Source of the DNA: a bacterium
GTDB lineage: Bacteria; Armatimonadota; JACIXR01
NCBI GenBank assembly: GCA_014360465.1
Contig: JACIXQ010000001.1
Location: 35,677 to 99,676, forward strand
Direction: 5' to 3'
Length of the DNA stretch: 64,000 bases
The position numbers and the translations under genes are program-made. Below are positions 6,275-60,358 of the stretch, one piece after another. Below the pieces are notes generated by a model, which saw only the letters and a program-made list of their open reading frames with translations, was not told where the DNA came from and did no database searches. Within the stretch, counting starts at the first letter, position 1. Every line of letters starts with the position of its first letter.

Positions 6275-8824
6275 ATGAATATAATACTGACTCACAAATC
6301 GCCTGATGGAGATGCAGTAGCTTCCCTTCTTGGCGCTTATCTCGTTTTTCCCCATTCTCTTCCCATTATGCCAGAAGGGGCACCTTACCCTAAGGAAATT
6401 TATTCCCAGTTCGGCGATGCTTTACCTCTATATTCGGAAAAGGAAATCCCCTGGAAAAAAGTCAAAAGTGCGATTCTTGTGGATTGTTCATCCCTTGGGA
6501 GGGTGGGTAAGATTGGCGAGGAAGTAAGAAGACGAGGCTTGCCCTTGATTATCATAGACCATCACTTGGAAACCTCTGGAGAGTTAAACATCAAAAATTG
6601 TTTTGTGGAACCTTTCGGCTCTGCCACTACCATCCTTGTAGGAATGATGAAGGAGAAGGGAATAATTCCTACACCTTTCCAGGCAACATTGCTGGCTCTG
6701 GGTATATATTCCGACACCGGTTCGTTAACTTATCCATCTACTTCGGAGGAAGATTTAAAGGCTGTTGCTTTCCTTCTTTCTTGTGGAGCGAACATCCCCC
6801 AAATTGTTCCTTTGCTTCATCCCTTACTTTCTGAAGAGGAGAAGAAACTCCTGGAGGAATTCAGCGGTGGTCTTGAGGTCAAAGATATTAAGGGGGTAAG
6901 AGTTGGTATAGGTGGTGTTAAGAGGGATAAGATGGAGTTCAATCTTGCCCCTATAGCCATCAAGTTGTTGGAAAGAGAGAATATAGAGGTTCTATTTTTA
7001 ATGTTAGAGGTAGATGGAAAAACATATTTGCTTGGAAGAAGCAAGGGCGAGATATATGATGTCAGCAAAGTCCTGAGTAGATTAGGTGGGGGTGGGCATA
7101 AGAACGCGGGTGCGGGAGTTGTGCCCTGCTCTTTGAATGAAGCTAAGGAAAGGTTGACATTTCTTTTGCCACAGGGAATTCAATGGGAGATTGAAGCACA
7201 AGATATAATGACTACTCCAGTTAAAGTAGTTCACACCAATACCCTGGTTAAAGATGCTCTGGAGATTATGCGTTCCTTCGGCTTTGGAGGATTGCCTGTT
7301 GTAGATAGAGGGAAAGTGGTGGGGGTTATCACCCGCAAGGAGGCAGAGAAATTAGCTAAATATGGAATGGGTGATAAGGAGTTGGGAGCCTTTGCTTACC
7401 GAGACCCTATTTTTGTTTCTCCCAAGACGAGTTTATCACAGGTTATCAGGCATATGAACGAAGGTGGAATAGGAAGGATATTGGTTATGGAGAGGGGGAA
7501 ATTGGTAGGGATAATAACTCGCCAGGATGTCATTGGTGCACTATATGGTCAAAGGATAAAGGAAAAAAGAGGGGAACAGATAATAGAAGAAATCGATTAT
7601 GGATTAAGGGAGAAACTTCTTAAAATCGGCGAGTTAGCTGCTTCACTCGGTATGAGGACATATCTCGTTGGAGGTGTCGTGAGGGATATAATTTTGGGTA
7701 AAGGTGTCAACGACCTTGATATCCTTGTTGTAGGAAAAGCGATAGAACTCGCGGAGAAAATAAGCCAGGAGATGAAGGGTGAGTTGATATCTCATCATCG
7801 CTTCGGAACAGCTACGGTCAGACTTCCTGATGGGCTTGAGATAGACTTCGCCAGCGCAAGGCGAGAATTCTACCCTAGGGCAGCGGTCTTGCCAGCTGTA
7901 GAGCCAGGTTCACTCAAAGAGGACCTTTTCAGAAGGGACTTCACGATAAATGCGCTTGCGCTCTCCTTACATCCCCGCGAATTCGGTTTCCTCGTTGATT
8001 ATTTTGGGGGAATGGAGGATTTGAGAAAAAAAAGTATAAAGGTACTTCATAGCCTCAGCTTTTGGGAAGACCCTACACGCCTATTGCGAGCTATAAGGTT
8101 GGAGGCGAAGCTCGGTTTTAAGATGGATGAATGGACGGAAAAATTGGCAAGGGATGCAGTAATAGGAGGTGCCCTAGCTCCCTTATCTGGAGAACGCTTT
8201 CGGGAGGAACTCAAATTGACGATAGAGGAGAATCCAGCCTATTGCTTAGTGAGAATGGAGGATATAGGGGTTCTAAAGGCAATACATCAAAAGGCTAAGC
8301 TGGACAAGCAAATGCTAAGACGATTACTTAAGCAGAAAATCGGCTCTAATAGTGTGGAAGAATGGATATTATATCTCTATCCTGTTCTCGGCTCCTTGAA
8401 CGAGGAAGAGATAAAGAGGGTTACATATCGGCTCAGGATGACCTCGCAACAAAGAGAGAAATTCCTTGTCCTTGTAGGAGTTGACGAGATTATAGCGAAT
8501 CTCTCTTCTCCCCGTTTGAAAAGGAGTCAGATTTACAGGTTGTTGAGGGATTTGCCAGCGGAAATCATATTCTGGATGAGGGCAAAAGGAAATAGAGTAG
8601 TTAAAAGAAGGGTTTCTCTTTTCTGGGAGAAGTTGCGATTTGTAAAGGTTTCTTTGACAGGTGAGGACTTGATGAATTTAGGGATTCCTGAGGGTCCAAT
8701 GGTTGGTCAAATCCTTTCAAAACTACTTGAGGCAAGGTTAGATGGGAAGGTAAGAAACGATGATGAGGAAAAATCTTTGGCTTTAAAGCTGAAGGAGGTA
8801 AAATATGGCGGAGAGGCTTATTGA
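6275..8824 (+). CDS. Multidomain fusion: DHH-DHHA1 phosphoesterase (NrnA-like), tandem CBS domains, and a CCA-adding / poly(A) polymerase-family tRNA nucleotidyltransferase
   Basis: N-terminal DHH motifs (SPDGDAV, IIDHH, GGGGHKNAGAG). Two CBS repeats (TTPVKVV...LPVVD, VSPKTSL...ILVME). Pol-beta nucleotidyltransferase head (LVGGVVRDIILGKGVNDLDILV, RREFYP, RRDFTINALA). The start codon abuts the lysA stop. Confidence 0.75.
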   Translation: MNIILTHKSPDGDAVASLLGAYLVFPHSLPIMPEGAPYPKEIYSQFGDALPLYSEKEIPWKKVKSAILVDCSSLGRVGKIGEEVRRRGLPLIIIDHHLETSGELNIKNCFVEPFGSATTILVGMMKEKGIIPTPFQATLLALGIYSDTGSLTYPSTSEEDLKAVAFLLSCGANIPQIVPLLHPLLSEEEKKLLEEFSGGLEVKDIKGVRVGIGGVKRDKMEFNLAPIAIKLLERENIEVLFLMLEVDGKTYLLGRSKGEIYDVSKVLSRLGGGGHKNAGAGVVPCSLNEAKERLTFLLPQGIQWEIEAQDIMTTPVKVVHTNTLVKDALEIMRSFGFGGLPVVDRGKVVGVITRKEAEKLAKYGMGDKELGAFAYRDPIFVSPKTSLSQVIRHMNEGGIGRILVMERGKLVGIITRQDVIGALYGQRIKEKRGEQIIEEIDYGLREKLLKIGELAASLGMRTYLVGGVVRDIILGKGVNDLDILVVGKAIELAEKISQEMKGELISHHRFGTATVRLPDGLEIDFASARREFYPRAAVLPAVEPGSLKEDLFRRDFTINALALSLHPREFGFLVDYFGGMEDLRKKSIKVLHSLSFWEDPTRLLRAIRLEAKLGFKMDEWTEKLARDAVIGGALAPLSGERFREELKLTIEENPAYCLVRMEDIGVLKAIHQKAKLDKQMLRRLLKQKIGSNSVEEWILYLYPVLGSLNEEEIKRVTYRLRMTSQQREKFLVLVGVDEIIANLSSPRLKRSQIYRLLRDLPAEIIFWMRAKGNRVVKRRVSLFWEKLRFVKVSLTGEDLMNLGIPEGPMVGQILSKLLEARLDGKVRNDDEEKSLALKLKEVKYGGEAY

Positions 8825-11537: not shown

Positions 11538-12263
11538 ATGCGAAGGAGTAATGGAAAAGGCGGTTTCACCTTGATAGAATTGCTCGTAGTGATTGCTATT
11601 ATTGCAATCCTTGCAGCAATTCTATTCCCTGTCTTTAGCCGAGCACGAGAGATGGCGCGGAAGTCACAATGTATGAGCAATATGAGGAACTTAGCTACCG
11701 CTGCCTTGATGTATGCCCAGGATTGGGACGAGCACTTCTTCCTCACAGCTGATGCTTTTTGTAATTCCCCTACTCCTGGTTGTTGGGCTGTGCAATATCT
11801 CAATCGCCACACTGGGATTTACCCCTATATCAAGAACGAGGCGATAATGATTTGCCCGAGCAAAGGAATGCCTCCTCTTGAGGTTCAAGACTGGAGCTAT
11901 GGTTGGAATAAATGCTTGGGTCCTGATTTCTGGTTCCCTCACGGAGTTTCCCTTGCCTCTATAGCCCAACCATCCAAAGTGCTGATGTTCGGTGAATGTC
12001 ATGTAGTATGGCATCCCATCTCCATGAGGAATGGTTGTTGTGGTTTTGCTAATCATCTTCCCGAGGAACCCGACCATCAGAGACATCTTGTTGCTTTCCG
12101 CCATAACGATACCGCGAACATCGCCTTTGTTGATGGGCATGTTAAGGCGTTCAAGAGGGAGCAGATTCCCGATTGGGATGGACAGATGGATGCGAGTGGC
12201 GTGCGCAACACTAATGTCTATATAGACCCCCTCTGCCGGAACGCCGAGGATTACGGGATGTAA
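11538..12263 (+). CDS. DUF1559 / prepilin-type N-terminal cleavage-methylation domain protein (H-X9-DG family)
   Basis: [34 protein letters not shown] prepilin leader and pilin-like helix. C-terminal [19 protein letters not shown]9-DG motif. AAGGAGGTG RBS. Confidence 0.8.
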
Positions 12264-16227: not shown

Positions 16228-16866
16228 TCAATATCCTGTTTCCATCTCGCTGATTATTTCTTCGGAAAGATGGCAAGTATCATTCAGTGTCACTATTTGC
16301 CATCCCCATTCTTCGTAGAAATCAAAGATATTTATATTAGCGTTAGCCTGTTTAATTCGTCTGAAAGGTTTTATTGTCCCAAGGATATGACAGACAAAAG
16401 CCCTTATGGGTCCACCGTGTGCGACGAGAAGAACTTCTTCTCCCTTGTGTCTGGTGGGTATATTTTCTATAAATTCAACCACACGACTTTGCATTTCCAA
16501 TATTCCTTCTCCTTCTGGAGGGTAAGCCTTTCCTTCATACCATAGTTCCAAAGCGTTTCCCCATTTCTCTCTTATTTCCTCCAAGGTTAGTCCTTCCCAT
16601 TTCCCGAAATCGGCTTCCATTAAAGATGTTGTTTCTACCACTTCTAAATTATGCGTTAAAGAGATGATTTCGGCGGTATTTTTTGCTCTTATAAGGGGGC
16701 TAGAATATACAGCATTGAGCGGGATGTTGGCAAGTCTTTTAGCCAGGAGTTTGGCTTGTGTGATGCCCTTTTGATTTAAAGGGACATCCGTCCTGCCTTG
16801 CATCTTTCCTCCATCGTTCCATTCTGTCATTCCGTGCCTAACCAGATATATCCTCGTTTTGCACAT
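16228..16866 (-). CDS. Histidine phosphatase superfamily (phosphoglycerate-mutase-like) phosphatase
   Basis: N-terminal IYLVRHGMTEWN RHG catalytic motif and a downstream LLVAHGGPIRA His box. Its start overlaps the 3' end of the Clp1-like gene by 29 nt. Confidence 0.8.
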   Translation of the reverse strand: MCKTRIYLVRHGMTEWNDGGKMQGRTDVPLNQKGITQAKLLAKRLANIPLNAVYSSPLIRAKNTAEIISLTHNLEVVETTSLMEADFGKWEGLTLEEIREKWGNALELWYEGKAYPPEGEGILEMQSRVVEFIENIPTRHKGEEVLLVAHGGPIRAFVCHILGTIKPFRRIKQANANINIFDFYEEWGWQIVTLNDTCHLSEEIISEMETGY

Positions 16867-17920
16867 ATTTGTCCTCCTTTTTCTGCGGTAGGTTTATCTT
16901 CATAGAGCCAAAGACAATTGTTGAAACCTTGTTAGCATCTCGGAGTGGGGTATAAATAGTGAGGTTCTTCTCAGCGAAACCGATGCTCTTTATTATTCCG
17001 ACCTCAATGTATTCTCCGTTCTCACTTGCAAGCCCTACATATCTATCGGTCAGCTCATCCACTGTAATTATGTGGACCTTTTTGCCCAATTCCCTTTCAA
17101 GAGAAAGGGGGGATAGACCCCCATATTTTTCTTCTCCTACCAGCCATATTCCCCATCTATCGCCTTCTCCCCATAATAGTTTTCTTCCCCATTTACTCTC
17201 AAGGTATTTCAGGAGTGAAGGATGAAGGGGATTGGTTGCAAAGATAGGTGAATTGCGAAAGGCAATCCGGTCCAGGGTGAAGGTGAGAAAGGAAGCATTT
17301 GCGAAATGGGAAAGAACTTTTCTCTCCCTGTTTTCCTTCCTTTCCTCAAAGGAGCGAGCGGAAGCCAGGGGTGAGGGGGGAAGACGATATATATTCAACC
17401 AGCTCGTCTTTTCCCAGCCCTTCAAAATATGTTCCACTTCTATCCCCCTCTGAAGAGCGACAAGATGATTTGGGCGGATTGCCTCTATTTTGAAGCTTTT
17501 AAGCTTTCTCGCTGGCATACCGCTCACGAGCCCTGTTGTATCAACGAGGACAAGTTCTGCTCCAAGTTCCAACGCCTTTCGGACCATCTTTTCTGTGCCA
17601 ACGACCATATCAAGAAAATGACCCTGAGGTGATATATCGCCGACAAAGTAAAGAGCCGATAGAGGGATATCTGATAGTGACATCATTTCTGGATGGGCAA
17701 ATCCTAAACCGATTGTCCCGGGTGGACCGATGTCTGACTGACCTATATCTGCGTCCACGACAGCAACCTTTTGGTAAAAGTTGAGGGCATAAAAGGCTAC
17801 GGCAGCGCAGAAGGTGCTCTTGCCTACATCAACAGCTCCAAGAACCAGTGCCACGCCGCCTTCCCTTGCTATTTTCTCTCCCACTTCCTGCCATTGAGGA
17901 TGGAGCTGGAATTTCCTCAT
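16838..17920 (-). CDS. Clp1/Grc3-family P-loop polynucleotide 5'-hydroxyl kinase-like protein
   Basis: Walker A GAVDVGKST followed by VAVVDADIGQSDIGPPGTIGL, which tracks the eukaryotic/archaeal Clp1 segment VELDVGQGSVSIPGT. The colinear downstream blocks are VDTTGLVSG...LVALQRGIEVEHIL and LPPSPLASARSFEERKENRERKV. A 4-nt ATGA overlap links it to the upstream M20 gene. Confidence 0.7.
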   Translation of the reverse strand: MRKFQLHPQWQEVGEKIAREGGVALVLGAVDVGKSTFCAAVAFYALNFYQKVAVVDADIGQSDIGPPGTIGLGFAHPEMMSLSDIPLSALYFVGDISPQGHFLDMVVGTEKMVRKALELGAELVLVDTTGLVSGMPARKLKSFKIEAIRPNHLVALQRGIEVEHILKGWEKTSWLNIYRLPPSPLASARSFEERKENRERKVLSHFANASFLTFTLDRIAFRNSPIFATNPLHPSLLKYLESKWGRKLLWGEGDRWGIWLVGEEKYGGLSPLSLERELGKKVHIITVDELTDRYVGLASENGEYIEVGIIKSIGFAEKNLTIYTPLRDANKVSTIVFGSMKINLPQKKEDKYVQNEDISG

Positions 17921-22641: not shown

Positions 22642-22718
<77 letters not shown>

Positions 22719-28736: not shown

Positions 28737-28818
28737 GGGAAAATTTACTTAAAGAATTTGACGATTGAAAAATCATTTGTCCTGGGTCTGTTGGACAAGA
28801 ATTTTAATGCTCTCTCCT

Positions 28819-28852
28819 TTGGAGGCTTTCCCATAGGAAAGCCTCCAACTTT
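28819..28852. terminator. Bidirectional hairpin terminator between convergent genes
   Basis: Perfect 13-bp stem TTGGAGGCTTTCC / GGAAAGCCTCCAA with a CATA loop, followed by CTTTTG on the + strand. Confidence 0.5.
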
Positions 28853-28926
28853 TGCCTCTATACATGAAAAAGTTTACATGTTCCTAATTTAAAAGTACCG
28901 TGCTCTGGAAGTTAGAATATTGAAAC

Positions 28927-29322
28927 CTATTTCGGAGTAGGTCCTCCCATTGGACCTTTCATCATCCCGGACCCCATCATAGGCATACTGCCAGAAGGGC
29001 CACCACCGCCCATTGGACCTTTCATCATCCCGGGTCCCATCATAGGCATACCGCCAGAAGGGGCACCACCGCCCATTGGACCTTTCATCATCCCGGGTCC
29101 CATCATAGGCATACCACCCGCAGGGGCGTTACCTCCCATCGGACCTTTCATCATCCCGGGTCCCATCATAGGCATATTGCCTGACATTCCGGGCATTCCG
29201 GCGGTAGCTTGGGTGTTAGTAGGAGCAGGAGGCTTTGGAGCGAGCAAAACGACTGCGAGGGTCGCCAGCACACAGATGATGAAGAATATAGCGGAACCTA
29301 TCAGCATTTTATCCGTTTTCAT
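28927..29322 (-). CDS. Small exported or membrane-anchored Met/Gly/Pro-rich repeat protein; putative Cu(I)/Ag(I)-binding periplasmic protein
   Basis: N-terminal hydrophobic signal/anchor, then four copies of ...GGMPMMGPGMMKGPMGG(A/G)(P)S... About 30 Met residues fall within about 100 residues. Confidence 0.6.
   Translation of the reverse strand: MKTDKMLIGSAIFFIICVLATLAVVLLAPKPPAPTNTQATAGMPGMSGNMPMMGPGMMKGPMGGNAPAGGMPMMGPGMMKGPMGGGAPSGGMPMMGPGMMKGPMGGGGPSGSMPMMGSGMMKGPMGGPTPK
28941..29192. repeat. 63-bp direct tandem repeat (about 4 copies), in-frame coding repeat
   Basis: CATTGGACCTTTCATCATCCCGG recurs at 28948, 29011, 29074 and (as CATCGGACC...) 29137, an exact 63-nt (21-codon) period with a few substitutions. 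Confidence 0.8.
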
Positions 29323-29478
29323 TTATAAGGAACCTCCTTTCTTGATATTCAATTTTATTATATACATCGCAAGAATGCTGTCAAACATATATCATCTTGC
29401 AATTCAATGGTGTTCATTTATTCTCCTTCGACTTTTCCTTCTTGAAAAAAATTCCCAATTGCTTTATGCTTTTTACAA

Positions 29479-32841: not shown

Positions 32842-33618
32842 CTATAGACCGAATATATCGTTTGGGCAGAAGCGAATTGTGCCTCCTTTGAAGCGGAACT
32901 TCAGCTGGGGAACGGAATACCATTTGGCGTGCCCATCGGCAAAGACAAGGTTTGAGCCACCTGTATGTCTGCTGAAACGTTTGATTGCTTCATCCAGATT
33001 ATGAATTACCGGTGGACAACAGGTAAGGACGGAAGGGTCGTTCCAGCCCGGACCGGGGTTGGTGAAAGATAGCCAAATGGAGATGCCTGTAGCCCCATCA
33101 TAGGCGGCGCCCAAAACAGCATGTCTGCCATCGGCTATCACCACCGTCTCCGCTGGGGCAGCTATGGCAGCAAGCTTTGCGGTGGAAGCATTGCCCCTTC
33201 CACACCAGTTAAGGGGGTTCATTATCCTCTCGTTATAGCCGTAATCAAGAGGATGTGAGTTTTGTGGTCTTCCCCATCGCTGTGGATAACAAATGCTGAC
33301 CCCGGTTCTTTCCGGGCTGAGGGAGCTGGGGCATTCAAAGACCTGCCAGTTCTTCGTATAAGGGGCAAGTTGTTCCCACCAGGCTAATCCTCCGTCGTCG
33401 TGTCCCCAACAGGGCCAGTGCCAGGTAGGAAGCACTTCATCCCAATCTTGCGCATACATCATCAACGCGGTTCCTATCTGTTTCGTGTTAGATAGGCAAG
33501 CGGATTTTCTCGCTTGTTCCCTGGCACGGGAAAAAACGGGAAAGAGAATTGCCGCCAGGATCGCGATAATCGCGATCACGACGAGCAATTCTATCAAAGT
33601 AAACCCCCTTCTTTTCAT
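32842..33618 (-). CDS. DUF1559 / prepilin-type N-terminal cleavage-methylation domain protein (H-X9-DG family)
   Basis: [34 protein letters not shown] leader/helix and the C-terminal [17 protein letters not shown] motif. Confidence 0.8.
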
Positions 33619-33797: not shown

Positions 33798-34391
33798 ATG
33801 AAGAAGCTGGAGAAGGAAGAAGAGCAAAGATTAATTAAAAATTGTCTTGCGGGAGAGAGGGACGCACTGGAGGAGTTCATTAGGCTCTTCCAGAAACCCG
33901 TTTTCAATCTCGCCTACAGATTGTGTGGTGATAGGGATATGGCTGAGGATATAGCGCAGGAAGCCCTGCTCCGTGCTTTGGAGAATCTCCCTCGTTTCAA
34001 GGGGGAATCTTCTCTTTACACTTGGTTATATCGTATAACAACTAATATTTTTTATGACAGCATAAGGGGGAGCAAGGAGCTCTCCTATGACCAGATGAGC
34101 TATAACGAGGATGAGGGTGAAACGAAATCTATTGAGCTACCGGATGAGGAATCCTCTGTAGAGAAGGATATGGAGAGGAGAGATATACAGGAGATAGTAC
34201 AGAAGGAGATCGCGAAGCTTCCAACCCATTATCGCACTGTTCTGGTCCTTTATGATATAGAAGGTTTTTCTTATGAGGAGATATGCGGGATATTGCAAAA
34301 ACCGATTGGGACGATAAAATCTCGTTTGAACAGGGCTCGTAAGATTTTGAAGGCAAGATTGGAAAAATATCGGGAACTTTTTGAGGACTAA
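33798..34391 (+). CDS. ECF (group IV) RNA polymerase sigma-70 factor
   Basis: Region 2 (DIAQEALLRALENLPRF...YTWLYRITTN) and region 4 HTH (VLVLYDIEGFSYEEICGILQKPIGTIKSRLNRARKIL). Confidence 0.9.
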   Translation: MKKLEKEEEQRLIKNCLAGERDALEEFIRLFQKPVFNLAYRLCGDRDMAEDIAQEALLRALENLPRFKGESSLYTWLYRITTNIFYDSIRGSKELSYDQMSYNEDEGETKSIELPDEESSVEKDMERRDIQEIVQKEIAKLPTHYRTVLVLYDIEGFSYEEICGILQKPIGTIKSRLNRARKILKARLEKYRELFED

Positions 34392-34410
34392 AAATGTCTA
34401 ATCATTTGAA

Positions 34411-35382
34411 ATGAAGTGCGACCGAGTCAAAGAGCTATTGTTAGATTATCTGAATGGCGACCTATCGGCGCCAGAGAAGCTCCTCGTTGATGAACATATC
34501 GGCATTTGTCCTTCTTGTAGAGAGGAGCTGAGAAAATTGGAGAAGATGAGGCACCTCCTCTCTTCTCTTAAGCCAATTGAACCACCCCCTTATTTTACCC
34601 AGAAGGTAATAGCAAATTATTACGCGAGAAAAGAGAGAAAAGCGCACCCTCTGCGTGTTTTCTTTTTCGGTGGGTTGAAACCAAGCAGGGCATTTGCCTA
34701 CGCAGGGTTCGCCATATTCCTTATTTTCGCTTTTGCATACCTTTCCCTTTCACCCTGGTGGGGTAAAGCGAGGCAGGCGGTAGTTCCTTCTATTCCGACT
34801 TTGAAGAGGGCGCCATCTATAATCTCGGCGAAAGGTATTGGTAAAATTCTTGTTCTTCCCCAAACTACAACACCCGACGCTCAGGGAAGAATCAGGATTG
34901 AGATAATGGTTTATCCACCTTCTCCACAGGAGAAGGTTTGGTTGAGTCTCCTGCTTTCCCAAGGGATGGTTTTTGCCAGTGAGAATCCTCTCCTTCCCCA
35001 TCAGAAAGACTACTACATCGGAAAATTGAGTAGCCCTGTCTCTTTCTGGACGGATGTCCAGGTCTCCTCTCAGGGAGTCCAATGGATAAGGGTATCCTGC
35101 CAGAGTGGTAATCACAAGTGGGCAGAAGGACTCCTCTTCCTCCCCATAGGAATAAAACCATCTCCTTTCGTTTCCCTCTCCCAAAGCGATATAGATGCCA
35201 TATCGCTTCTCGCGCTTCTATGCGAGCGAACTGGAAAACCTCTGGCATTGTCAGTGCCACTATCTTCAAAGTTGAATTTCTCCTACCAGGGAGACGCAGA
35301 AGGGGCAATTCACCATTACGCTTCCCTTTTAGGGTTGACCGCATTAAAATATAATGGCGGTTTCATAATAGAGATTCCCTGA
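34411..35382 (+). CDS. Anti-sigma factor with N-terminal zf-HC2 zinc finger, one TM segment and a periplasmic domain
   Basis: The H..C..C signature (DEHIGICPSCREEL), a TM helix around residues 95-115, and its position immediately downstream of the ECF sigma. Confidence 0.7.
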   Translation: MKCDRVKELLLDYLNGDLSAPEKLLVDEHIGICPSCREELRKLEKMRHLLSSLKPIEPPPYFTQKVIANYYARKERKAHPLRVFFFGGLKPSRAFAYAGFAIFLIFAFAYLSLSPWWGKARQAVVPSIPTLKRAPSIISAKGIGKILVLPQTTTPDAQGRIRIEIMVYPPSPQEKVWLSLLLSQGMVFASENPLLPHQKDYYIGKLSSPVSFWTDVQVSSQGVQWIRVSCQSGNHKWAEGLLFLPIGIKPSPFVSLSQSDIDAISLLALLCERTGKPLALSVPLSSKLNFSYQGDAEGAIHHYASLLGLTALKYNGGFIIEIP

Positions 35383-35417
35383 AAAGCAAAAAGCCCTAAA
35401 AGGAGGGATTGCTTGAA

Positions 35418-36401
35418 ATGAAAAAGCTTTTCATCTTCTGTCTGCTTTGGAGCGTGGTTTTTCCCCAGGTTATCATCAAGCAGGTAAATTATAATGGGTG
35501 GCCTCACGCAGTTATGCTGCAGAAGGATGACAGCAGGCTCGTAATTGCTCCGGGTATAGGAGGGAGGATAATGGAGTTTTCTTTGAGGGGGCTAAACCCG
35601 ATTTGGCAAAACCCCGAGGAGTTTGGCAAAACCTATCCCATAAGCGATGTCTGGCATAACTATGGAGGTTACAAAATCTGGAACGCTCCTCAAGCCGTAT
35701 GGGGTTGGCCTCCTGACCCATTCCTTGACTATGGCAAGGCGAGTGTGGAGATAATTAAGGACGGTGTGAGGGTTTATGGTGCCCCTTCCTTAAAGGCAGG
35801 AATTATGTTTATAAAGGAGATAACCTTTCTTGAAAGAGGAAGGATAAAGATAGTTCAGAGGATGAGAAACATCTCGGGTCGGGAAGTCAGATGGAGCATT
35901 TGGGATGTAACCCAGGTATCAACCCCTTGCTTCGTCGTCTTCCCTGCGGAGAAAAATTCCAAGTTTCCAGAAGGATTGTATTTCTTTGACGAACCATCAC
36001 GCAAAAGCTCCCAATGGAAAATTAAAAACGGACTCGTGATAGTTGAATATAAGGGTGAGACAGGAAAAATAGGGTTGGATAGTTCCTCAAACTGGATGCT
36101 TTATCTTAAGAATAACCTCGCCTATGTGAAACGATTTCCAATCTTTAAGGGAGCGGATTATCCCGACGAGGGTTGTTCTGTTGAGGTTTATACTAATTCC
36201 AAAGAGCTTCCTTACTTGGAGATGGAGGTTCTGAGCCCCCTGGTCAGTTTGAAACCTGGTGAGGAATACAGCTTCTGGGAAGAATGGTCGCTCTGGATAC
36301 TTTCCCATCCTGTCAAAGTGGAGGGAGATATACCAGGAGCGATTAGGGAGCTTGCACTTGCAGGTATACTCCCTATAGACGCTTTTAAATATCTTCCCTA
36401 A
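35418..36401 (+). CDS. Secreted hypothetical protein (third gene of the ECF module)
   Basis: Signal peptide (MKKLFIFCLLWSVVFPQ). No recognisable catalytic motif. ATG at 35418 with a GGAGGG RBS. Confidence 0.4.
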   Translation: MKKLFIFCLLWSVVFPQVIIKQVNYNGWPHAVMLQKDDSRLVIAPGIGGRIMEFSLRGLNPIWQNPEEFGKTYPISDVWHNYGGYKIWNAPQAVWGWPPDPFLDYGKASVEIIKDGVRVYGAPSLKAGIMFIKEITFLERGRIKIVQRMRNISGREVRWSIWDVTQVSTPCFVVFPAEKNSKFPEGLYFFDEPSRKSSQWKIKNGLVIVEYKGETGKIGLDSSSNWMLYLKNNLAYVKRFPIFKGADYPDEGCSVEVYTNSKELPYLEMEVLSPLVSLKPGEEYSFWEEWSLWILSHPVKVEGDIPGAIRELALAGILPIDAFKYLP

Positions 36402-55086: not shown

Positions 55087-56157
55087 ATGGTGAGAGAAGT
55101 AAAGGATTATTATCAGATTTTGGGAGTTGAGCCTACAGCCACCACAGAGGAGATAAAGAGGCGTTTCAGGGAGCTTGTGCGGCGCTATCATCCTGATGTC
55201 CATCCCGATAAGCTTTTCAGCCACGAGATATTTCGCCAGATACTTGAGGCTTACAAAGTTTTGGGTGACCCAGAGAAAAGGCGGATTTACGATTCATTGA
55301 GGAAGGGGAAAACCCCTGTTAAGGAGGTACTTGTAGAAGTTCCTACGAAACCTCCTGTTGACTTGGAGGGCTTACTTTTGAGGGCGGAGATAGCTCTTAT
55401 AAGAGGTAATCTCAAGGACGCAGTAGAACTTTGTAATGAAGTGCTTAAAAAAGACCCGAGGAACGCATTCGCCTACAATCTGCTGGGCGATATTTTTAGA
55501 GCACAGGGGAGAATTAAAGAAGCGATAGAGATGTATTCCTACGCCGTTCAGTTTGACCCGCATAAGCCGATTTACGCTGAGAAGCTTAACAAGTTGCTCA
55601 AAGGGGAGAGAGGAGTAGAGACGATAGCGGAGGAAAGGATAAGAACAAAACCATTTTCCATTTTTCTCTTCTCGCTCGGTTTGCTTTCCCTCATTCCCAT
55701 ATGCTGGTGGATATCCCACAACCCTGGCACTGTTATAAAAAACTTCCCCTTTGCCAATTTCAGCCTGAATCTCATAATTGCTTTATCTCTCGCAGGAGTA
55801 TCATTGGGATTTTTCTCAGGTTGCTCCCGTTTCCTTCGTAGGCATGACGAGGAATTGATTTTCGCTTTAAGCTGGATTGGAAAAGGATATCTGCCTCTCG
55901 GGTTGATACTCTGCATTTTCTCCTTCGCCTTTTTTTGGGGCTCGTTGATTCTCTATGCGATTATATCGGCTATTCAAGAACATACTTCTTTATCGGTTTG
56001 GAAAGCCTATCTACTTTCTATCCTTGGAATCTTGGCTATCGCCTTTTCACTTCTGCCAATTTGGAAGAGCATCATTCTATGGGGAGGCAATTTCGTGCTT
56101 CCCTTTTTCTTCATCGGCTGGTTGATAGGGGATATATTCCGCCCTATTGGGAGTTAG
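55087..56157 (+). CDS. J-domain (DnaJ-like) protein with a TPR region and a C-terminal multi-TM domain
   Basis: DYYQILGVEPTATTEEIKRRFRELVRRYHPDV with the HPD tripeptide. TPR-like repeats at about residues 100-170. Four to five TM helices at the C-terminus. Confidence 0.7.
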   Translation: MVREVKDYYQILGVEPTATTEEIKRRFRELVRRYHPDVHPDKLFSHEIFRQILEAYKVLGDPEKRRIYDSLRKGKTPVKEVLVEVPTKPPVDLEGLLLRAEIALIRGNLKDAVELCNEVLKKDPRNAFAYNLLGDIFRAQGRIKEAIEMYSYAVQFDPHKPIYAEKLNKLLKGERGVETIAEERIRTKPFSIFLFSLGLLSLIPICWWISHNPGTVIKNFPFANFSLNLIIALSLAGVSLGFFSGCSRFLRRHDEELIFALSWIGKGYLPLGLILCIFSFAFFWGSLILYAIISAIQEHTSLSVWKAYLLSILGILAIAFSLLPIWKSIILWGGNFVLPFFFIGWLIGDIFRPIGS

Positions 56158-56531
56158 GATTTTGAGAAAAACATTCGGATAGCGAGAAGTATAATGATAA
56201 TGGCGAGGAGCTTCTTGACGAGACCGCCGGGGATTTGGGAAACGAGTGTTGCCCCAAGGAATGCTCCCAAAAGCGAACCACACCACATTATTATTGCTAT
56301 TTTCAAATCGGTATTTCCGTAATGAGCGTGGCGGAGAGCACCGACTAAAGCTGTGGGAATCATAACAGCAAGGCTTGTTCCAAGCGCCCTATGGGGTTCT
56401 ACCTTGAACACTTCCGTGAGGATTGGAATTATGATAACCCCTCCACCCAAACCGAAGAAACCACTGAAAGTGCCAACGAAAATGCCGGCTAAAACCAATC
56501 CAATTATTCCGAGCCAGCTAAGGGTTGCCAT
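56154..56531 (-). CDS. Half-size TSUP (TauE/SafE, DUF81) family membrane protein
   Basis: 125 aa with four TM helices and the glycine-rich GLGGGVIIIP motif typical of one TauE repeat. Confidence 0.6.
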   Translation of the reverse strand: MATLSWLGIIGLVLAGIFVGTFSGFFGLGGGVIIIPILTEVFKVEPHRALGTSLAVMIPTALVGALRHAHYGNTDLKIAIIMWCGSLLGAFLGATLVSQIPGGLVKKLLAIIIILLAIRMFFSKS

Positions 56532-56983
56532 AATTCTTCTTTCTCAAGGATTCTTTTTAACGAGATTTCTTTAATCTTAAGTGGACCCAATGGGAGTATT
56601 TTCTCCGTCATTTCGCTGATCACCTGGGCGAATTTTTTGCCCTCTGCGGCAGATATCCATCTTATCTGGAGGCGCTCAGGTTCTATGCCGGCGAAAAGAA
56701 GGAGGTCTTTAAGGAGCATAAATCTGCGGCGGGCGTAATAGTTGCCCTTGGAATAATGGCAATCGCCGGGATGACAACCTGCTACTAAAACTCCATCGAA
56801 ACCCTCTCTGAAGCCCTTTATAACGAAGTATGGGTCCATTCGGGCGGAACAGGGAAAGCGAATAACGCGAGGGGTAGGGGGATAGTGAATGCGGGAGATA
56901 CCAGCGAGGTCTGCGCCAGCATAGGCGCACCAGCGGCACAGAAGGCAGAGAATCCTCGGAGTCCACTCTCTATTCTCTTTCAA
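56504..56983 (-). CDS. mvhD: MvhD-like methyl-viologen-reducing hydrogenase delta subunit, the electron-transfer partner of HdrA
   Basis: Conserved Cys pattern CLLCRWCAY...GCHPGDCHY ([2Fe-2S]-binding MvhD fold). Confidence 0.8.
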   Translation of the reverse strand: MKENREWTPRILCLLCRWCAYAGADLAGISRIHYPPTPRVIRFPCSARMDPYFVIKGFREGFDGVLVAGCHPGDCHYSKGNYYARRRFMLLKDLLLFAGIEPERLQIRWISAAEGKKFAQVISEMTEKILPLGPLKIKEISLKRILEKEELWQPLAGSE

Positions 56984-58955
56984 CTTTAGCCAATCCCTCC
57001 AGTTGTGCTATTAATTGTTCGGATGTAAAACCAAGAAGGTCAATTGCTTGAGACCTGCAAGCTGAGGCGCAATTCCCACATCCCTGACAGAGTCCCGGGT
57101 TTACTTTCGCTATCTTCTTTTCCAACCCCGATGTCTGTTCAAGTACGGTTTCTTCCTCAATAGCCGAATAGGGACATACTTCTTTGCAGGAAAAGCAACC
57201 GACACATTTATTTTTATTAACCCTTGCGACAACCGGCTCGGAAAAGAGGCTTTCTTGTTGCATGATGGCTATAGCTTTGGAGGCAGCAGCCGACGCCTGA
57301 GCAACGCTATCGGGGATGTCCTTGGGGAACTGGCAGGTGCCAGCAAGAAATATACCTTTAGTCATCGTCTCAACCGGGCGTAGCTTGGGGTGAGCTTCCA
57401 TCAACCATCCATATTCGTCAGTGGAGATGTTCAACTTTCTGGCGAGGTCTTTAACATCCTTTCGGGGAACAAGCGCAGCTGCTAAGACAACGAGGTCAGC
57501 CTCAACCTTCACCTGCTGACCGAGAAGAGTATCGGTGCCTTGCACGATAAGTTTTCCATTTTCCGGATATATTCTTCCCACCCTTCCCCTGATATAAATA
57601 GCGCCGAATTCATCCTGCACCCTTCTTACGAACTCCTCATAGCCTTTCCCAAAGGCGCGAATATCAATATAGAAAATGTAAGTCTTCACATTGGGTAAAT
57701 GTTCTTTTAATAGGAGGGCGTGTTTAGCTGTGTACATACAGCAAACACGGGAGCAATAGGGATAACCTTTCTGTTCGTCTCGGGAACCGACACATTGTAT
57801 GAAGACGACGCTTTCGGGATGTTTCCCGTTTGATGGTCGTATTATTTCTCCCTTCGTTGGTCCTGATGAATTTATCATTCGCTCCAATTGGGCGGAGGTG
57901 ATGATGTCTGGATGTTGTCCATACCCATATTCGCCATAGACCGATGCGTCAAATATGTCCGCTCCCGTTGCCACGATGATTGTTCCGAATTTCTCCTTGA
58001 TGTAAGTATCCTGCTGGGAATAATCGATAGCCTTAGCGGGGCAAACCCTTTGGCAGAGTCCGCATCTGCCCTTTGTAAACCAAAGGCAGACCTCTCTATC
58101 TATAACGGGAACGAGGGGCACTGCTTGGGGGAAAGGAATATAGATTGCTTTCCTTTCGCCTATCCCCTCGTCAAATTCGCTTGTGGCTTTCGTGGGACAT
58201 CTTTCAATGCAAAGCCCGCAACCCGTGCAAAGGTCTTCGTTCACGGAACGGGCCTTTTTCTTTATGGTTACCTCAAAGTTGCCGACGAAACCCTTGACTT
58301 CCTCAACCTCGCTATAGCTAAGGATTTTGATGTTGGGATGACGGTAGCAGTCAACCATCTTGGGGGAAAGGATGCACATAGCGCAGTCAAGGGTTGGAAA
58401 AGTTTTATCAAATTGCGCCATTCTGCCGCCAATGCTTGGGCTTTTCTCAACGAGATATACCTGGAAACCTGCTTCCGCTATATCAAGAGCTGCTTGTATT
58501 CCCGCTATCCCTCCACCTATCACCAAAGCTTTTTTCTCCACGCTGAATTCCAGAGGTTCAAGGGGTTGAGCGCGTTTTACCCTTTCTACGGCAGCAGCTA
58601 TCAGTTCAAAAGCCTTTTCTGTTGCGAGTTCTCTATCCTCGTGGACCCAGGAATCCTGTTCCCTGATGTTTGCCATTTCCATAAAGTAAGGATTCAGTCC
58701 GGCTTCGGAAACAGCCCTTTGGAAGGTTGTTTCGTGCATTGCTGGCGAACAAGAGGCGACGACTACACGGTCAAGTTTGTGTTCCGATATGGCGTTTCTG
58801 ATGAGCTCCTGTCCAGGGTCGGAGCACATATAGCGGTAAGAAGTGGAATAAACAACACCGGGAAGGGTAGATGCTTTTTGAGCCACCTGCTCTACATCAA
58901 CTGTTTTCGCTATATTAACTCCGCACCAGCAGACGAAAACACCGACACGGGGCAT
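56970..58955 (-). CDS. hdrA: Heterodisulfide reductase subunit A-like flavoprotein with multiple Fe-S clusters
   Basis: FAD/Rossmann GxGxxG motif (ALVIGGGIAGIQAALDIAEAG), several CxxCxxCxxxCP ferredoxin motifs, and an N-terminal Cys cluster. Confidence 0.85.
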   Translation of the reverse strand: MPRVGVFVCWCGVNIAKTVDVEQVAQKASTLPGVVYSTSYRYMCSDPGQELIRNAISEHKLDRVVVASCSPAMHETTFQRAVSEAGLNPYFMEMANIREQDSWVHEDRELATEKAFELIAAAVERVKRAQPLEPLEFSVEKKALVIGGGIAGIQAALDIAEAGFQVYLVEKSPSIGGRMAQFDKTFPTLDCAMCILSPKMVDCYRHPNIKILSYSEVEEVKGFVGNFEVTIKKKARSVNEDLCTGCGLCIERCPTKATSEFDEGIGERKAIYIPFPQAVPLVPVIDREVCLWFTKGRCGLCQRVCPAKAIDYSQQDTYIKEKFGTIIVATGADIFDASVYGEYGYGQHPDIITSAQLERMINSSGPTKGEIIRPSNGKHPESVVFIQCVGSRDEQKGYPYCSRVCCMYTAKHALLLKEHLPNVKTYIFYIDIRAFGKGYEEFVRRVQDEFGAIYIRGRVGRIYPENGKLIVQGTDTLLGQQVKVEADLVVLAAALVPRKDVKDLARKLNISTDEYGWLMEAHPKLRPVETMTKGIFLAGTCQFPKDIPDSVAQASAAASKAIAIMQQESLFSEPVVARVNKNKCVGCFSCKEVCPYSAIEEETVLEQTSGLEKKIAKVNPGLCQGCGNCASACRSQAIDLLGFTSEQLIAQLEGLAKVERE

Positions 58956-58958
58956 ACC

Positions 58959-59819
58959 TTATCTCCTCCTTAGGGTAGGTATGAGAAATGGGTCTACGAG
59001 GTGTCTTCGTAAACCAAGTTTTTTCGCTGGTATCCCCAGTGCGAGCCCCAGAACCTGGGTGAAATAGAGGATGGGTATATTAAAAATCTCACCCTTTACC
59101 CTGTGGACATCAGCCTGCCGGGCGTCAAGGTTGAGATGACAGAAAGGGCAAGCGGTGACGATGGCATCAGCGCCCGCTGTTTTAGCTGATTTAAGGATTC
59201 TATAGGTTAGCTCAACAACGAGGTCGGAACGGGGAATGGTCAAGTTTGCCCCACAACATTCGGTCTTATGGGTCCAATCCACAACTTGGGCTCCGCAAGC
59301 TCTTAGGAGCTCGTCCATAGTTGTGGGGTTTTCGGGATCGTCAAATTGGCATATGTGGGGTGGACGAAGGAGGAGGCAACCATAATAGCTTGCAAGTTTG
59401 AGGTCGGATAGGGGTTTCGTGATTTTGGGTTTTATCTCTTCAAGCATTCCCACGAAAAGGTCAAGGAGGTTGCGAATTCGCAATCTATTTTCCCAAGGGA
59501 TGGGGAGAAGTTCTCTGACTTTCTCAAAGGTTGCCTTGTCCTGGCAAAGAACAGCTGTGTGCTTCAGACGATTGAAACAGGCAGCGCAGGGAGCGACAAC
59601 ATCCTCAACATCCATTCGCTCAGCGAGAGCGAGGGAATAGGCTGGCATCGCTAAGGATAGGAGATGATTTGTCGCATGGGCAGATGTTGCCCCACAACAT
59701 ATCCACCCTTCTATTTCCTCCAATTCTATTCCTACTGCCTTGCAGACTTCCCTGACAGATATGTCAAACTCAATACCAGTTGAATGGAGGCTACAGCCCG
59801 GGAAATAAGCTACCTTCAT
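58959..59819 (-). CDS. hdrB: Heterodisulfide reductase subunit B-like protein (two CCG domains)
   Basis: Two CCG-domain signatures (WICCGAT...PCAACF and ECCGAN...ACPFCHLNLD). Confidence 0.85.
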   Translation of the reverse strand: MKVAYFPGCSLHSTGIEFDISVREVCKAVGIELEEIEGWICCGATSAHATNHLLSLAMPAYSLALAERMDVEDVVAPCAACFNRLKHTAVLCQDKATFEKVRELLPIPWENRLRIRNLLDLFVGMLEEIKPKITKPLSDLKLASYYGCLLLRPPHICQFDDPENPTTMDELLRACGAQVVDWTHKTECCGANLTIPRSDLVVELTYRILKSAKTAGADAIVTACPFCHLNLDARQADVHRVKGEIFNIPILYFTQVLGLALGIPAKKLGLRRHLVDPFLIPTLRRR

Positions 59820-60358
59820 CTTTGAGATGTTTTCTCCATAAGTTGTCTTACCACCTCGCTATTTGGCGAAGTGGTAGGGAAGGGATTCAATTTGCCATTT
59901 ATGAACATCTTGATTCCCATAAGTATGTCGTTGAACCACTGCCCGCTTCTCAATTTATACTCCATAATAAAGCCCAGTTCGTATAATTTGCCCAACCAGC
60001 CTACCCATCTGCAGAAGATTTTGTGAAAAAGAGGGATTCGTGGCTCTTTAGGTGGGATGTTTTCTTTTAGGGCAATTTCGCGCAGAGCATCCATTACATA
60101 GGAGATTCGTATTTCAAGCGGACAGCGTGCTGTACAGGAGGCACAGGAGGCGCAAATCCATATCGTGGAGGAGGAAAGGACATCCCTTAAGCCTATTTGA
60201 GCCATCCGCATAACCTGATTGGGTTTAACATCCATTGCGAAGGCAAGTGGACAGGAAGCGGTGCATTTTCCACATTGATAGCATTTCTTGACATTTTCTC
60301 CACAAATCTCTTTGATCTGATTGGCTAAGGTGTCATCAGCAACGAGGTCAAGCATCAA
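59816..60358 (-). CDS. hdrC: Heterodisulfide reductase subunit C-like protein (two [4Fe-4S] clusters)
   Basis: CYQCGKCTASCP and CASCASCTARCP motifs. Confidence 0.85.
   Translation of the reverse strand: MMLDLVADDTLANQIKEICGENVKKCYQCGKCTASCPLAFAMDVKPNQVMRMAQIGLRDVLSSSTIWICASCASCTARCPLEIRISYVMDALREIALKENIPPKEPRIPLFHKIFCRWVGWLGKLYELGFIMEYKLRSGQWFNDILMGIKMFINGKLNPFPTTSPNSEVVRQLMEKTSQR

Follow-up and report, generated by a model that had tools for sequence, protein, structure and literature searches.

A membrane-helix protein with a predicted disordered Met/Gly/Pro tail as an orphan family of an Armatimonadota-related clade

A stretch of 64,000 nucleotides from an Armatimonadota assembly (GCA_014360465.1, contig JACIXQ010000001.1, positions 35,677 to 99,676 of the forward strand), hereafter the window, contains a small gene whose product joins an N-terminal hydrophobic helix to a long tail rich in Met, Gly and Pro. 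We conclude with high confidence that this is a real and lineage-restricted gene with probably constitutive and strong transcription, that it encodes a helix followed by a disordered tail whose composition is under selection, and that its tandem repeats are remade in each lineage. With regard to its function, we tentatively favour, by analogy with the Gly-Met tails of the chaperonin GroEL, a housekeeping brush of Met side chains that would sit at the outer surface of the cytoplasmic membrane, would offer transient hydrophobic contacts and would not be an inducible detoxification system.

Results

The gene occupies positions 28927..29322 of the minus strand (an earlier note on this DNA gave no strand), with its ATG at 29320-29322, 131 codons and a stop codon at 28927-28929, and encodes the product MKTDKMLIGSAIFFIICVLATLAVVLLAPKPPAPTNTQATAGMPGMSGNMPMMGPGMMKGPMGGNAPAGGMPMMGPGMMKGPMGGGAPSGGMPMMGPGMMKGPMGGGGPSGSMPMMGSGMMKGPMGGPTPK. 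Residues 48-131 are encoded by four in-frame units of 63 bp, 21 residues each (28930..29181, minus strand), which in protein register read GNMPMMGPGMMKGPMGGNAPA, GGMPMMGPGMMKGPMGGGAPS, GGMPMMGPGMMKGPMGGGGPS and GSMPMMGSGMMKGPMGGPTPK, and which form a Met/Gly/Pro tail with the motifs PMMGPGMM and KGPMGG. At 28946-29176, Tandem Repeats Finder detects an indel-free array with a period of 63 bp, 3.7 copies and 92% matches (score 378), and together with the protein register it confirms the four in-frame repeats that the earlier note had described. The 90-residue tail contains 26 Met (29%), and the whole protein of 131 residues contains 28 (21%), in a window where the background Met content is 1.9%. 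No other open frame of the 64 kb holds more than five Met per 30 residues, as compared to 11 in this tract, which is therefore unique in the window. The tail further contains 34% Gly, 19% Pro and 6% Lys, together with a few Ser, Ala, Thr and Asn, and lacks His, Cys, Asp and Glu, as well as any aliphatic or aromatic residue.

Five loci were compared, namely the window and four orthologues in other assemblies (L001, L002, L004 and L005). A word-indexed search of 5.8 billion proteins provided two related proteins, the complete P0001 of 90 aa and P0002, truncated at 80 aa by its contig end; the proteins of L004 (126 aa) and L005 (145 aa) were added by scanning GTDB genomes and JGI metagenomes for patterns. 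The start codon and the reading frame are common to the five loci, orthologues differ in length by in-frame indels only, and the order cdd / Met-rich gene / tal is kept in L001, L004 and L005, the contig of L002 being too short for any context. Along codons 1-33, synonymous divergence is saturated (pS 0.52-0.85) and non-synonymous divergence is low (pN 0.04-0.13; pN/pS 0.08-0.16), a pattern of purifying selection on the anchor. Between genomes, identity over the first 33 residues is 76-85%, similar to the transaldolase (81-86%) and above the cytidine deaminase Cdd (67%) and a WbsX-like protein (72-75%).

As for the five tails, they contain 26-29% Met, 30-44% Gly, 13-19% Pro and 3-6% Lys+Arg, they show no His, Cys, Asp or Glu and, by inspection, the orthologues are devoid of aliphatic and aromatic residues too. 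Their net charge is +3 to +5, their 2P+G value 0.66-0.71, and the motifs PMMGPGM and KGPMGG are conserved. The tract varies between 50 and 105 residues among relatives, in agreement with the variation in copy number that the earlier note had thought possible. The same note had admitted that homologues lacking Met conservation would reduce the tract to compositional low complexity; however, the four orthologues keep their 26-29% Met despite saturated synonymous divergence. Because every mutation of an ATG codon is non-synonymous, and yet more than a quarter of the codons stay ATG at a pS of 0.5-0.85, we infer selection on Met itself.

The repeats themselves appear to have a different history. 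The four units of the window gene share a 41-nt core (ATGCCTATGATGGGACCCGGGATGATGAAAGGTCCAATGGG) with an identity of 95-100% that extends to synonymous sites, and units 2 and 3 differ at just two of their 63 nt. Differences between units cluster in the linker GG(N/G)(A/G)P(A/S) and at the C-terminal end, and they affect all three codon positions, so that the earlier statement of a divergence mainly at third positions was wrong. In contrast, the best match of this core in any orthologue reaches 63-76%, and the repeat periods are others (69 bp and 15 bp in L004, about 18 bp in L002). Identity within the gene far above that across species, together with different periods, implies that each lineage has recently duplicated or homogenised its units, which contradicts the previous view of repeats maintained rather than recently duplicated. 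The arrays are remade in each lineage through slippage or unequal recombination, with the composition and the two motifs staying constant.

The earlier note had also considered that the repeat could be an assembly artefact. An independent Logan contig (SRR11866724), which carries an identical transaldolase, is identical to positions 28737-29030 of the window and then breaks inside the repeat core, at a point where the units can no longer be told apart. The tract is therefore real and its 3′ end is exactly reproduced by an independent assembly, whereas the copy number of four comes from one metagenome assembly only. The contig of P0002 likewise ends within the Met-repeat tract. Stops of two independent assemblies in the tract were recorded, one at L006 (4429-4722, Logan contig SRR11866724_8252) and the other at the contig end of L001/L003. 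As the Met repeat breaks short-read assemblies, orthologues are likely under-represented in the databases.

That the locus could be non-functional, either as a spurious open reading frame (ORF), an assembly artefact or the by-product of coding on the antisense strand, is very improbable. The contig breaks within the repeat fit with such an idea, as do the long ORFs on the antisense strand of the tract in L004 and L005 and an exact look-up in a collection of 15 billion proteins, from which the 131-aa product, the variant starting at Met6 and the 126-aa product are all absent. With the orthologue sequences tried, those of L004 and L005, exact look-ups retrieved no orthologue from the protein collections. 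Nevertheless, the antisense ORFs are absent across the array of the window and their frame is not conserved, whereas the frame, start, ribosome-binding site and promoter of the Met-rich gene are kept in five loci, its anchor shows purifying selection and its 3′ end has the independent match mentioned above, so this alternative is already largely refuted. The antisense ORFs map to the minus strand of L004 (9955-10371) and L005 (5916-6392 and 6019-6435), one frame reading IIPGPII and another being His-rich. They arise because ATG, GGN and CCN codons give no antisense stops, and gene callers could mispick them. As a real gene, the His-rich or the IIPGP ORF was rejected, since neither is conserved and the promoter, the ribosome-binding site and the anchor lie on the Met strand.

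At the N-terminus, residues 2-28 (29239..29319, minus strand) comprise an n-region, KTDK, and a 22-residue hydrophobic helix (maximum 19-residue Kyte-Doolittle hydropathy of 2.9), which would be a signal anchor or a signal peptide. A non-repeat linker of residues 29-47 follows (PKPPAPTNTQATAGMPGMS; 29182..29238, minus strand), with a conserved P(K/R)PPA. An AlphaFold2 run on a three-sequence alignment produced a single helix at residues 2-27, with a predicted local distance difference test (pLDDT) score of up to 90, and left the remaining 100 residues as a coil without secondary structure (pLDDT of about 50). Tails of 50-105 residues are thus predicted to be intrinsically disordered across the family. 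In this respect, the previous description of a genuine protein with an N-terminal signal/anchor helix and a Met-rich tail is supported.

The helix may either remain as a signal anchor or be cleaved as a signal peptide, so that the tail would be anchored or released by signal peptidase, and only in the second case does the whole mature protein consist of a Met tract, as had been proposed. Residues A20, T21 and A23 are invariant among orthologues, and TLA-VV is a possible signal peptidase I site; cleavage after LLA would be blocked because a Pro sits at +1. Two Lys flank the helix on its N side as compared to one Lys/Arg on its C side, and this bias, together with the layout of n-region and h-region, argues for an N-in topology with the tail outside. 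The window contains hints of a diderm organism, such as an outer-membrane beta-barrel (sub-threshold), a weak Wzi-like protein and a BamB-type PQQ_2 beta-propeller protein. In a diderm, as the organism appears to be, 'outside' means the periplasm, and the N-terminus would probably be cytoplasmic, with the tail exposed at the periplasmic side of the cytoplasmic membrane. Two other types of exported protein were rejected. For a lipoprotein, the lipobox [LVI][ASTVI][GAS]C is missing, since Cys17 is preceded by F-I-I and the residue at -1 is not small. For a type IV pilin-like protein, there is no prepilin motif (G, then F/M-x-x-x-E), as no Glu occupies +5 after Gly9, a residue that is Ala in L005.

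Upstream of the gene there is a sigma-70 promoter, TTGACA-16 nt-TATAAT (29357..29384, minus strand), which agrees with the consensus in all 12 positions, and a ribosome-binding site, AAAGGAGGT (29332..29340, minus strand), read from the sequence 9 nt 5′ of the ATG. In the upstream alignment of the five loci, TTGACA is invariant and TA(T/A)AAT is kept, with unconserved spacer and flanks, the AAGG(A/G) of the ribosome-binding site is conserved in all five, and no conserved operator candidate was found in the promoter region. A conserved consensus promoter and a strong ribosome-binding site suggest that transcription is probably constitutive and strong, and a protein as costly as this one, with 28 Met, is apparently expressed constitutively and at a high level. 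A 13-bp hairpin followed by a T-run (28819..28848, plus strand) lies between the convergent transaldolase and Met-rich genes. The T-run exists in the plus-strand orientation only; this hairpin is the terminator of tal, and probably a stop for the transcripts of both genes.

Two alternative modes of control were rejected. A Met-codon leader peptide or attenuator would need a downstream target, but the gene is followed by the hairpin and by the convergent tal. Control by the extracytoplasmic function (ECF) sigma/anti-sigma pair at 33798-35382 does not agree with a promoter of sigma-70 consensus. The only RNA element that Rfam detects over the 64-kb window is a tRNA. This tRNA-Met (anticodon CAT; 22642-22718, plus strand), the sole Rfam/ARAGORN match, could be an initiator, an elongator or a tRNA-Ile2, and its location near the Met-rich gene, which has 28 Met codons, is probably a coincidence.

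Database searches found no known family for the protein. Pfam gave only a sub-threshold OppC_N match, on the helix, NCBIfam gave no match, and neither did the PDB at E<=10, a tail-only query included. An exhaustive search of 1.84 billion representatives with a three-member profile hidden Markov model retrieved only the family's own representative and one spurious protein, P0003, which is an unrelated repeat artefact of 523 aa. The tail-only query against the set of 5.8 billion proteins yielded 1686 word-sharing candidates, none of them with E<=10, a search in which composition correction removes analogues. No relative combining a conserved anchor with a Met-poor tail appeared among the search results. 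Altogether, the protein falls in no tested family, missing a defining feature of each, and the family is an orphan of one narrow Armatimonadota-related clade.

Genomic neighbourhood and habitat

The neighbours of the Met-rich gene are of the housekeeping type (transaldolase, cytidine deaminase and M16 peptidases), and no metal or oxidative-stress gene is found within 64 kb. In the arrangement shared by all loci with context, an 880-aa WbsX-like gene is followed by cdd, divergent from the Met-rich gene, and then by the transaldolase gene, convergent with it; beyond the transaldolase, the window and L005 carry a pair of M16 peptidase genes. NCBI proteins of the window include the cytidine deaminase (MBC7326550.1), an ECF sigma factor (MBC7326554.1) and the transaldolase (MBC7326548.1). 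Exactly one accession number lies between those of tal and cdd, which suggests that some protein is probably annotated there.

The LysA of the window belongs to a private clade at 75-81% identity; among named taxa, Armatimonadota and Candidatus Fervidibacter come closest to it, at 57-60%. Genes for prepilin-type or DUF1559 proteins are typical of lineages such as the Planctomycetes-Verrucomicrobia-Chlamydiae group and Armatimonadota, in agreement with this placement, and two prepilin-type N-methylation/DUF1559 proteins are encoded at 11538-12263 (plus strand) and 32842-33618 (minus strand). At 56504-60358 (minus strand), consecutive genes encode MvhD/FlpD-like, HdrA-like (FAD plus several 4Fe-4S), HdrB-like (CCG domains) and HdrC-like proteins, a heterodisulfide-reductase-type module that marks an anaerobic lifestyle. 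Many glycoside hydrolases occur in the window next to the DUF1559 pseudopilin-like genes. The SRR11866724 data come from a Shengli oil-field metagenome, a long-term methanogenic enrichment (PMC9635834), and P0001 from a Tengchong hot-spring project (PMC11604079). The HdrABC/MvhD-like cluster, the glycoside hydrolases and these habitats point to a thermophilic, anaerobic and saccharolytic host.

Other features of the window deserve mention. A conserved trio of genes (33798-36401, plus strand), which code for an ECF sigma factor, an anti-sigma factor of 323 aa of the zf-HC2 type and a DUF4380 protein, is also present in L001; it lies 4.5 kb from the Met-rich gene, with no evident link to it, the promoter being of the sigma-70 type. 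An ORF of 125 aa of the TauE/SafE family (56154-56531, minus strand) matches positions 1-111 of a 237-position profile and reaches 4 nt into a convergent DnaJ-TPR gene, with the look of a truncated or split gene. A bacterial Clp1-type P-loop protein (Pfam CLP1_P, 3e-36; 16838-17920, minus strand) is encoded directly upstream of a gene of the histidine-phosphatase superfamily (16228-16866, minus strand), and this pair may be related to RNA-end healing. Finally, an 849-aa fusion at 6275-8824 (plus strand) combines DHH, DHHA1, two CBS domains and the head domain of poly(A) polymerase/CCA-adding enzymes.

Discussion

The earlier note had related the Met tract to the Cu(I)/Ag(I)-binding elements of CopC/PcoC, CueO and CusF-like proteins. 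A buffer of this kind would bind soft monovalent ions through periplasmic thioethers, with low affinity and high capacity, and would shield the membrane and the Fe-S enzymes of an anaerobe from Cu(I); as anoxic copper is Cu(I) only, the His or acidic ligands of Cu(II) would be unneeded. We regard such a role as rather unlikely, because nothing beyond the Met content supports it, and homology, motifs, co-ligands and context are all negative. The content itself does speak for copper, with 26 Met in 90 tail residues and 26-29% Met in all orthologues, dense and exposed thioethers in a tail that is probably extracytoplasmic, and MPMM clusters that place three thioethers in four residues, whose adjacent Met (MPMM/MM) could still chelate. 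In the same direction, Met-only peptides of the MxM, MxxM and MxMxxM types bind Cu(I)/Ag(I) (PMC9117721), the Met-rich domain of CueO helps to recruit Cu(I) (PMC11494321), and the periplasmic SilE, itself disordered, acts as a sponge for Ag+ (PMC5008109). However, SilE requires His as well as Met motifs (PMC5008109), which counts against copper here, and the copper resistance of anaerobic E. coli comes from the catalytic activity of CueO and not from the copper-binding capacity of its Met-rich domain (PMC12510620), a result that weighs against a Met-rich domain as the resistance agent.

The spacing of the Met residues also goes against a copper site. Expected motif counts were obtained from composition-preserving shuffles, and the repeats make the observed counts non-independent. 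Each tail has 0-1 MxxM, as compared to the 1.9-3.7 expected, no Mx1-2Mx1-2M (1.5-3.0 expected) and no MxMxxM, whereas MxM occurs 2-4 times per tail, as MPMM only, at or below expectation. The enriched spacing is MxxxM, in the form MM-GPG-MM (9 against 2.7 expected, P=0.001). None of the five tails shows the Ctr1-type Mets-motif arrangement, that is, three Met as MxM, MxxM or MxMxxM. Moreover, His, Asp, Glu and Cys are all at zero and the tail is cationic (+3 to +5), and no homology to CopC/PcoC, CusF or CueO emerged from Pfam, NCBIfam, the PDB or the exhaustive profile search. Pfam scans of about 50 ORFs detected no cop, cus, pco, sil, cue, csoR or msr genes in the 64 kb, and the orthologous loci contain no copper or silver resistance genes either. 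CueO, SilE/PcoE and Cus are metal-induced systems, unlike a gene with a conserved consensus promoter and no conserved operator, and the source habitats are strongly reducing.

The known copper and silver proteins thus offer partial parallels. The tail shares with the Met-rich domain of CueO and the Mets motifs of Ctr1 its dense exposed thioethers, its flexibility and a probable extracytoplasmic location, MPMM resembling a Met cluster, but it lacks homology, a catalytic or transport domain, His, Asp and Glu, the canonical spacing, a copper context and a metal-type regulation. SilE/PcoE are also small, exported and disordered in their apo form; yet SilE has His and Met motifs, folds on Ag+ and belongs to the sil operon (PMC5008109), whereas the Met-rich protein has no His, a Gly/Pro backbone that does not form helices and a housekeeping locus. 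In any case, a chain with 29% Met almost certainly binds Cu(I)/Ag(I) in vitro, so a binding assay cannot separate the hypotheses.

A second alternative is a sacrificial oxidant sink comparable to MrpX, in which Met would be oxidised by H2O2, HOCl or O2-derived species before the membrane is, and then re-reduced by a periplasmic methionine sulfoxide reductase. MrpX of Azospira suillum is a small exported protein with 20% Met, which scavenges hypochlorite and is recycled by YedY/MsrP (PMC4436054). Both proteins are small, exported (in our case, as predicted) and have at least 20% Met, with a function that would reside in the Met content rather than in a fold, and the tail is even richer in Met (29% vs 20%), fully exposed and disordered. 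A constitutive shield could also suit a strict anaerobe with occasional exposure to oxygen. On the other hand, MrpX contains 44% charged residues and is encoded in a yedYZ-mrpX operon induced 20-60-fold through the ECF sigma factor SigF (PMC4436054), whereas charged residues are about 5% here, the msr neighbour, the ECF induction and the high charge are all missing, the promoter is of the sigma-70 consensus type and the 64 kb contain no msr or yedYZ gene. With no NCBIfam match either, and a long-term methanogenic oil-field enrichment as one of the sources, an oxidant sink seems improbable.

The tail could also be inert and serve purely as an entropic spacer or elastomer, either cushioning the gap from the cytoplasmic membrane to the wall or working as a spring there, with Met tolerated as a flexible residue. 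All the tails have a 2P+G of 0.66-0.71, a range described for elastomeric proteins, among which abductin is a Gly/Met-rich elastomer. The Pro-rich PKPPAP right after the helix, as in periplasm-spanning anchors, and a tract length that is free to vary fit this idea as well. A spacer, however, would need neither Met held at 26-29% nor the conserved motifs PMMGPGM and KGPMGG, and we see little chance of this explanation being the right one.

Our preference for a housekeeping Met brush takes its working principle from the (GGM)4M tails of GroEL. Many copies of the tail would form a hydrated and non-collapsing brush in which the flexible side chains of Met, the sole hydrophobic groups, would make transient and adaptable contacts. 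Their targets would be either a membrane partner or envelope proteins, exported or unfolded, at the segments that these expose. Aggregation would be avoided thanks to Gly and Pro, whereas Lys would favour solubility and hold the chain close to anionic surfaces. In GroEL, tails altered to (AAM)4M, (PPM)4M or (GGD)4D have the same effect as removing the tail (PMC11978752). Substitutions of Gly (by Ala or Pro) and of Met (by Asp) are thus equivalent to a deletion, which shows that flexibility plus hydrophobicity is the active principle (PMC11978752), and the tails are reported to adopt polyproline II helices (PMC12571646).

The likeness is one of working principle and not of family membership. 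The tails of GroEL and of the Met-rich protein are both made of Gly and Met, have Met as the sole hydrophobic residue, are disordered, depend on composition over exact sequence and belong to a housekeeping context. Those of GroEL, however, are 13 residues long, cytoplasmic and part of an ATPase cage whose cavity they face, whereas those described here have 50-105 residues, stand alone, are cationic and attached to a helix, and would be extracytoplasmic, with their 13-19% Pro as an addition relative to the Gly-Met tail of GroEL. The PGM tails of the eukaryotic Sm B/B′ proteins are Pro-Gly-Met-rich disordered repeats that act as protein docking sites; they are nuclear and contain Arg, so this likeness is compositional only. 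The hot and anoxic habitats, as well as the HdrABC/MvhD-like cluster, would also favour a housekeeping role over a stress role.

Several points weigh against the brush. No direct evidence exists for a client or partner, and we know of no stand-alone or extracytoplasmic protein with a Gly/Met tail that could serve as a precedent. The abundance of the protein is deduced from a promoter whose strength was judged by the E. coli consensus, the host being an uncultured relative of Armatimonadota, and the topology is weakly determined by a charge count of two Lys against one Lys/Arg. A constitutive buffer of Cu(I) or oxidants would look identical at the sequence level, and most of the characterised bacterial extracytoplasmic Met-rich tracts are copper proteins. 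Our gene inventory covers 64 kb of the genome, and cop or msr genes may be encoded elsewhere. The probability left after all these readings goes to functions not yet imagined.

Extracytoplasmic Met-rich disordered tracts and the Gly-Met tails of chaperonins were already known; the novelty lies in a stand-alone Met/Gly/Pro tail on a membrane helix, as an orphan family. For now, the Met-rich protein can be regarded as a tidy curiosity, with no sign so far of a new mechanism. A bolder proposal, which we consider rather unlikely, is that it represents an undescribed type of envelope protein, a stand-alone 'thioether polymer' that would form an abundant, constitutive and membrane-tethered brush, acting either as an ATP-independent holdase similar to the GroEL tails or as a Met-only Cu(I) buffer of anaerobes, with its function encoded in a composition that persists as the repeats are continually remade. 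In any case, equating a Met-rich tract with copper is a shortcut that may not survive a check of Met spacing, co-ligands, regulation and gene context. Should a defined role exist for the tail, no natural example would be cleaner of a function residing only in exposed Met on an unfoldable backbone, and the family would then offer a minimal system to separate the extracytoplasmic roles of Met in Cu(I) binding, oxidant absorption and flexible hydrophobic contact.

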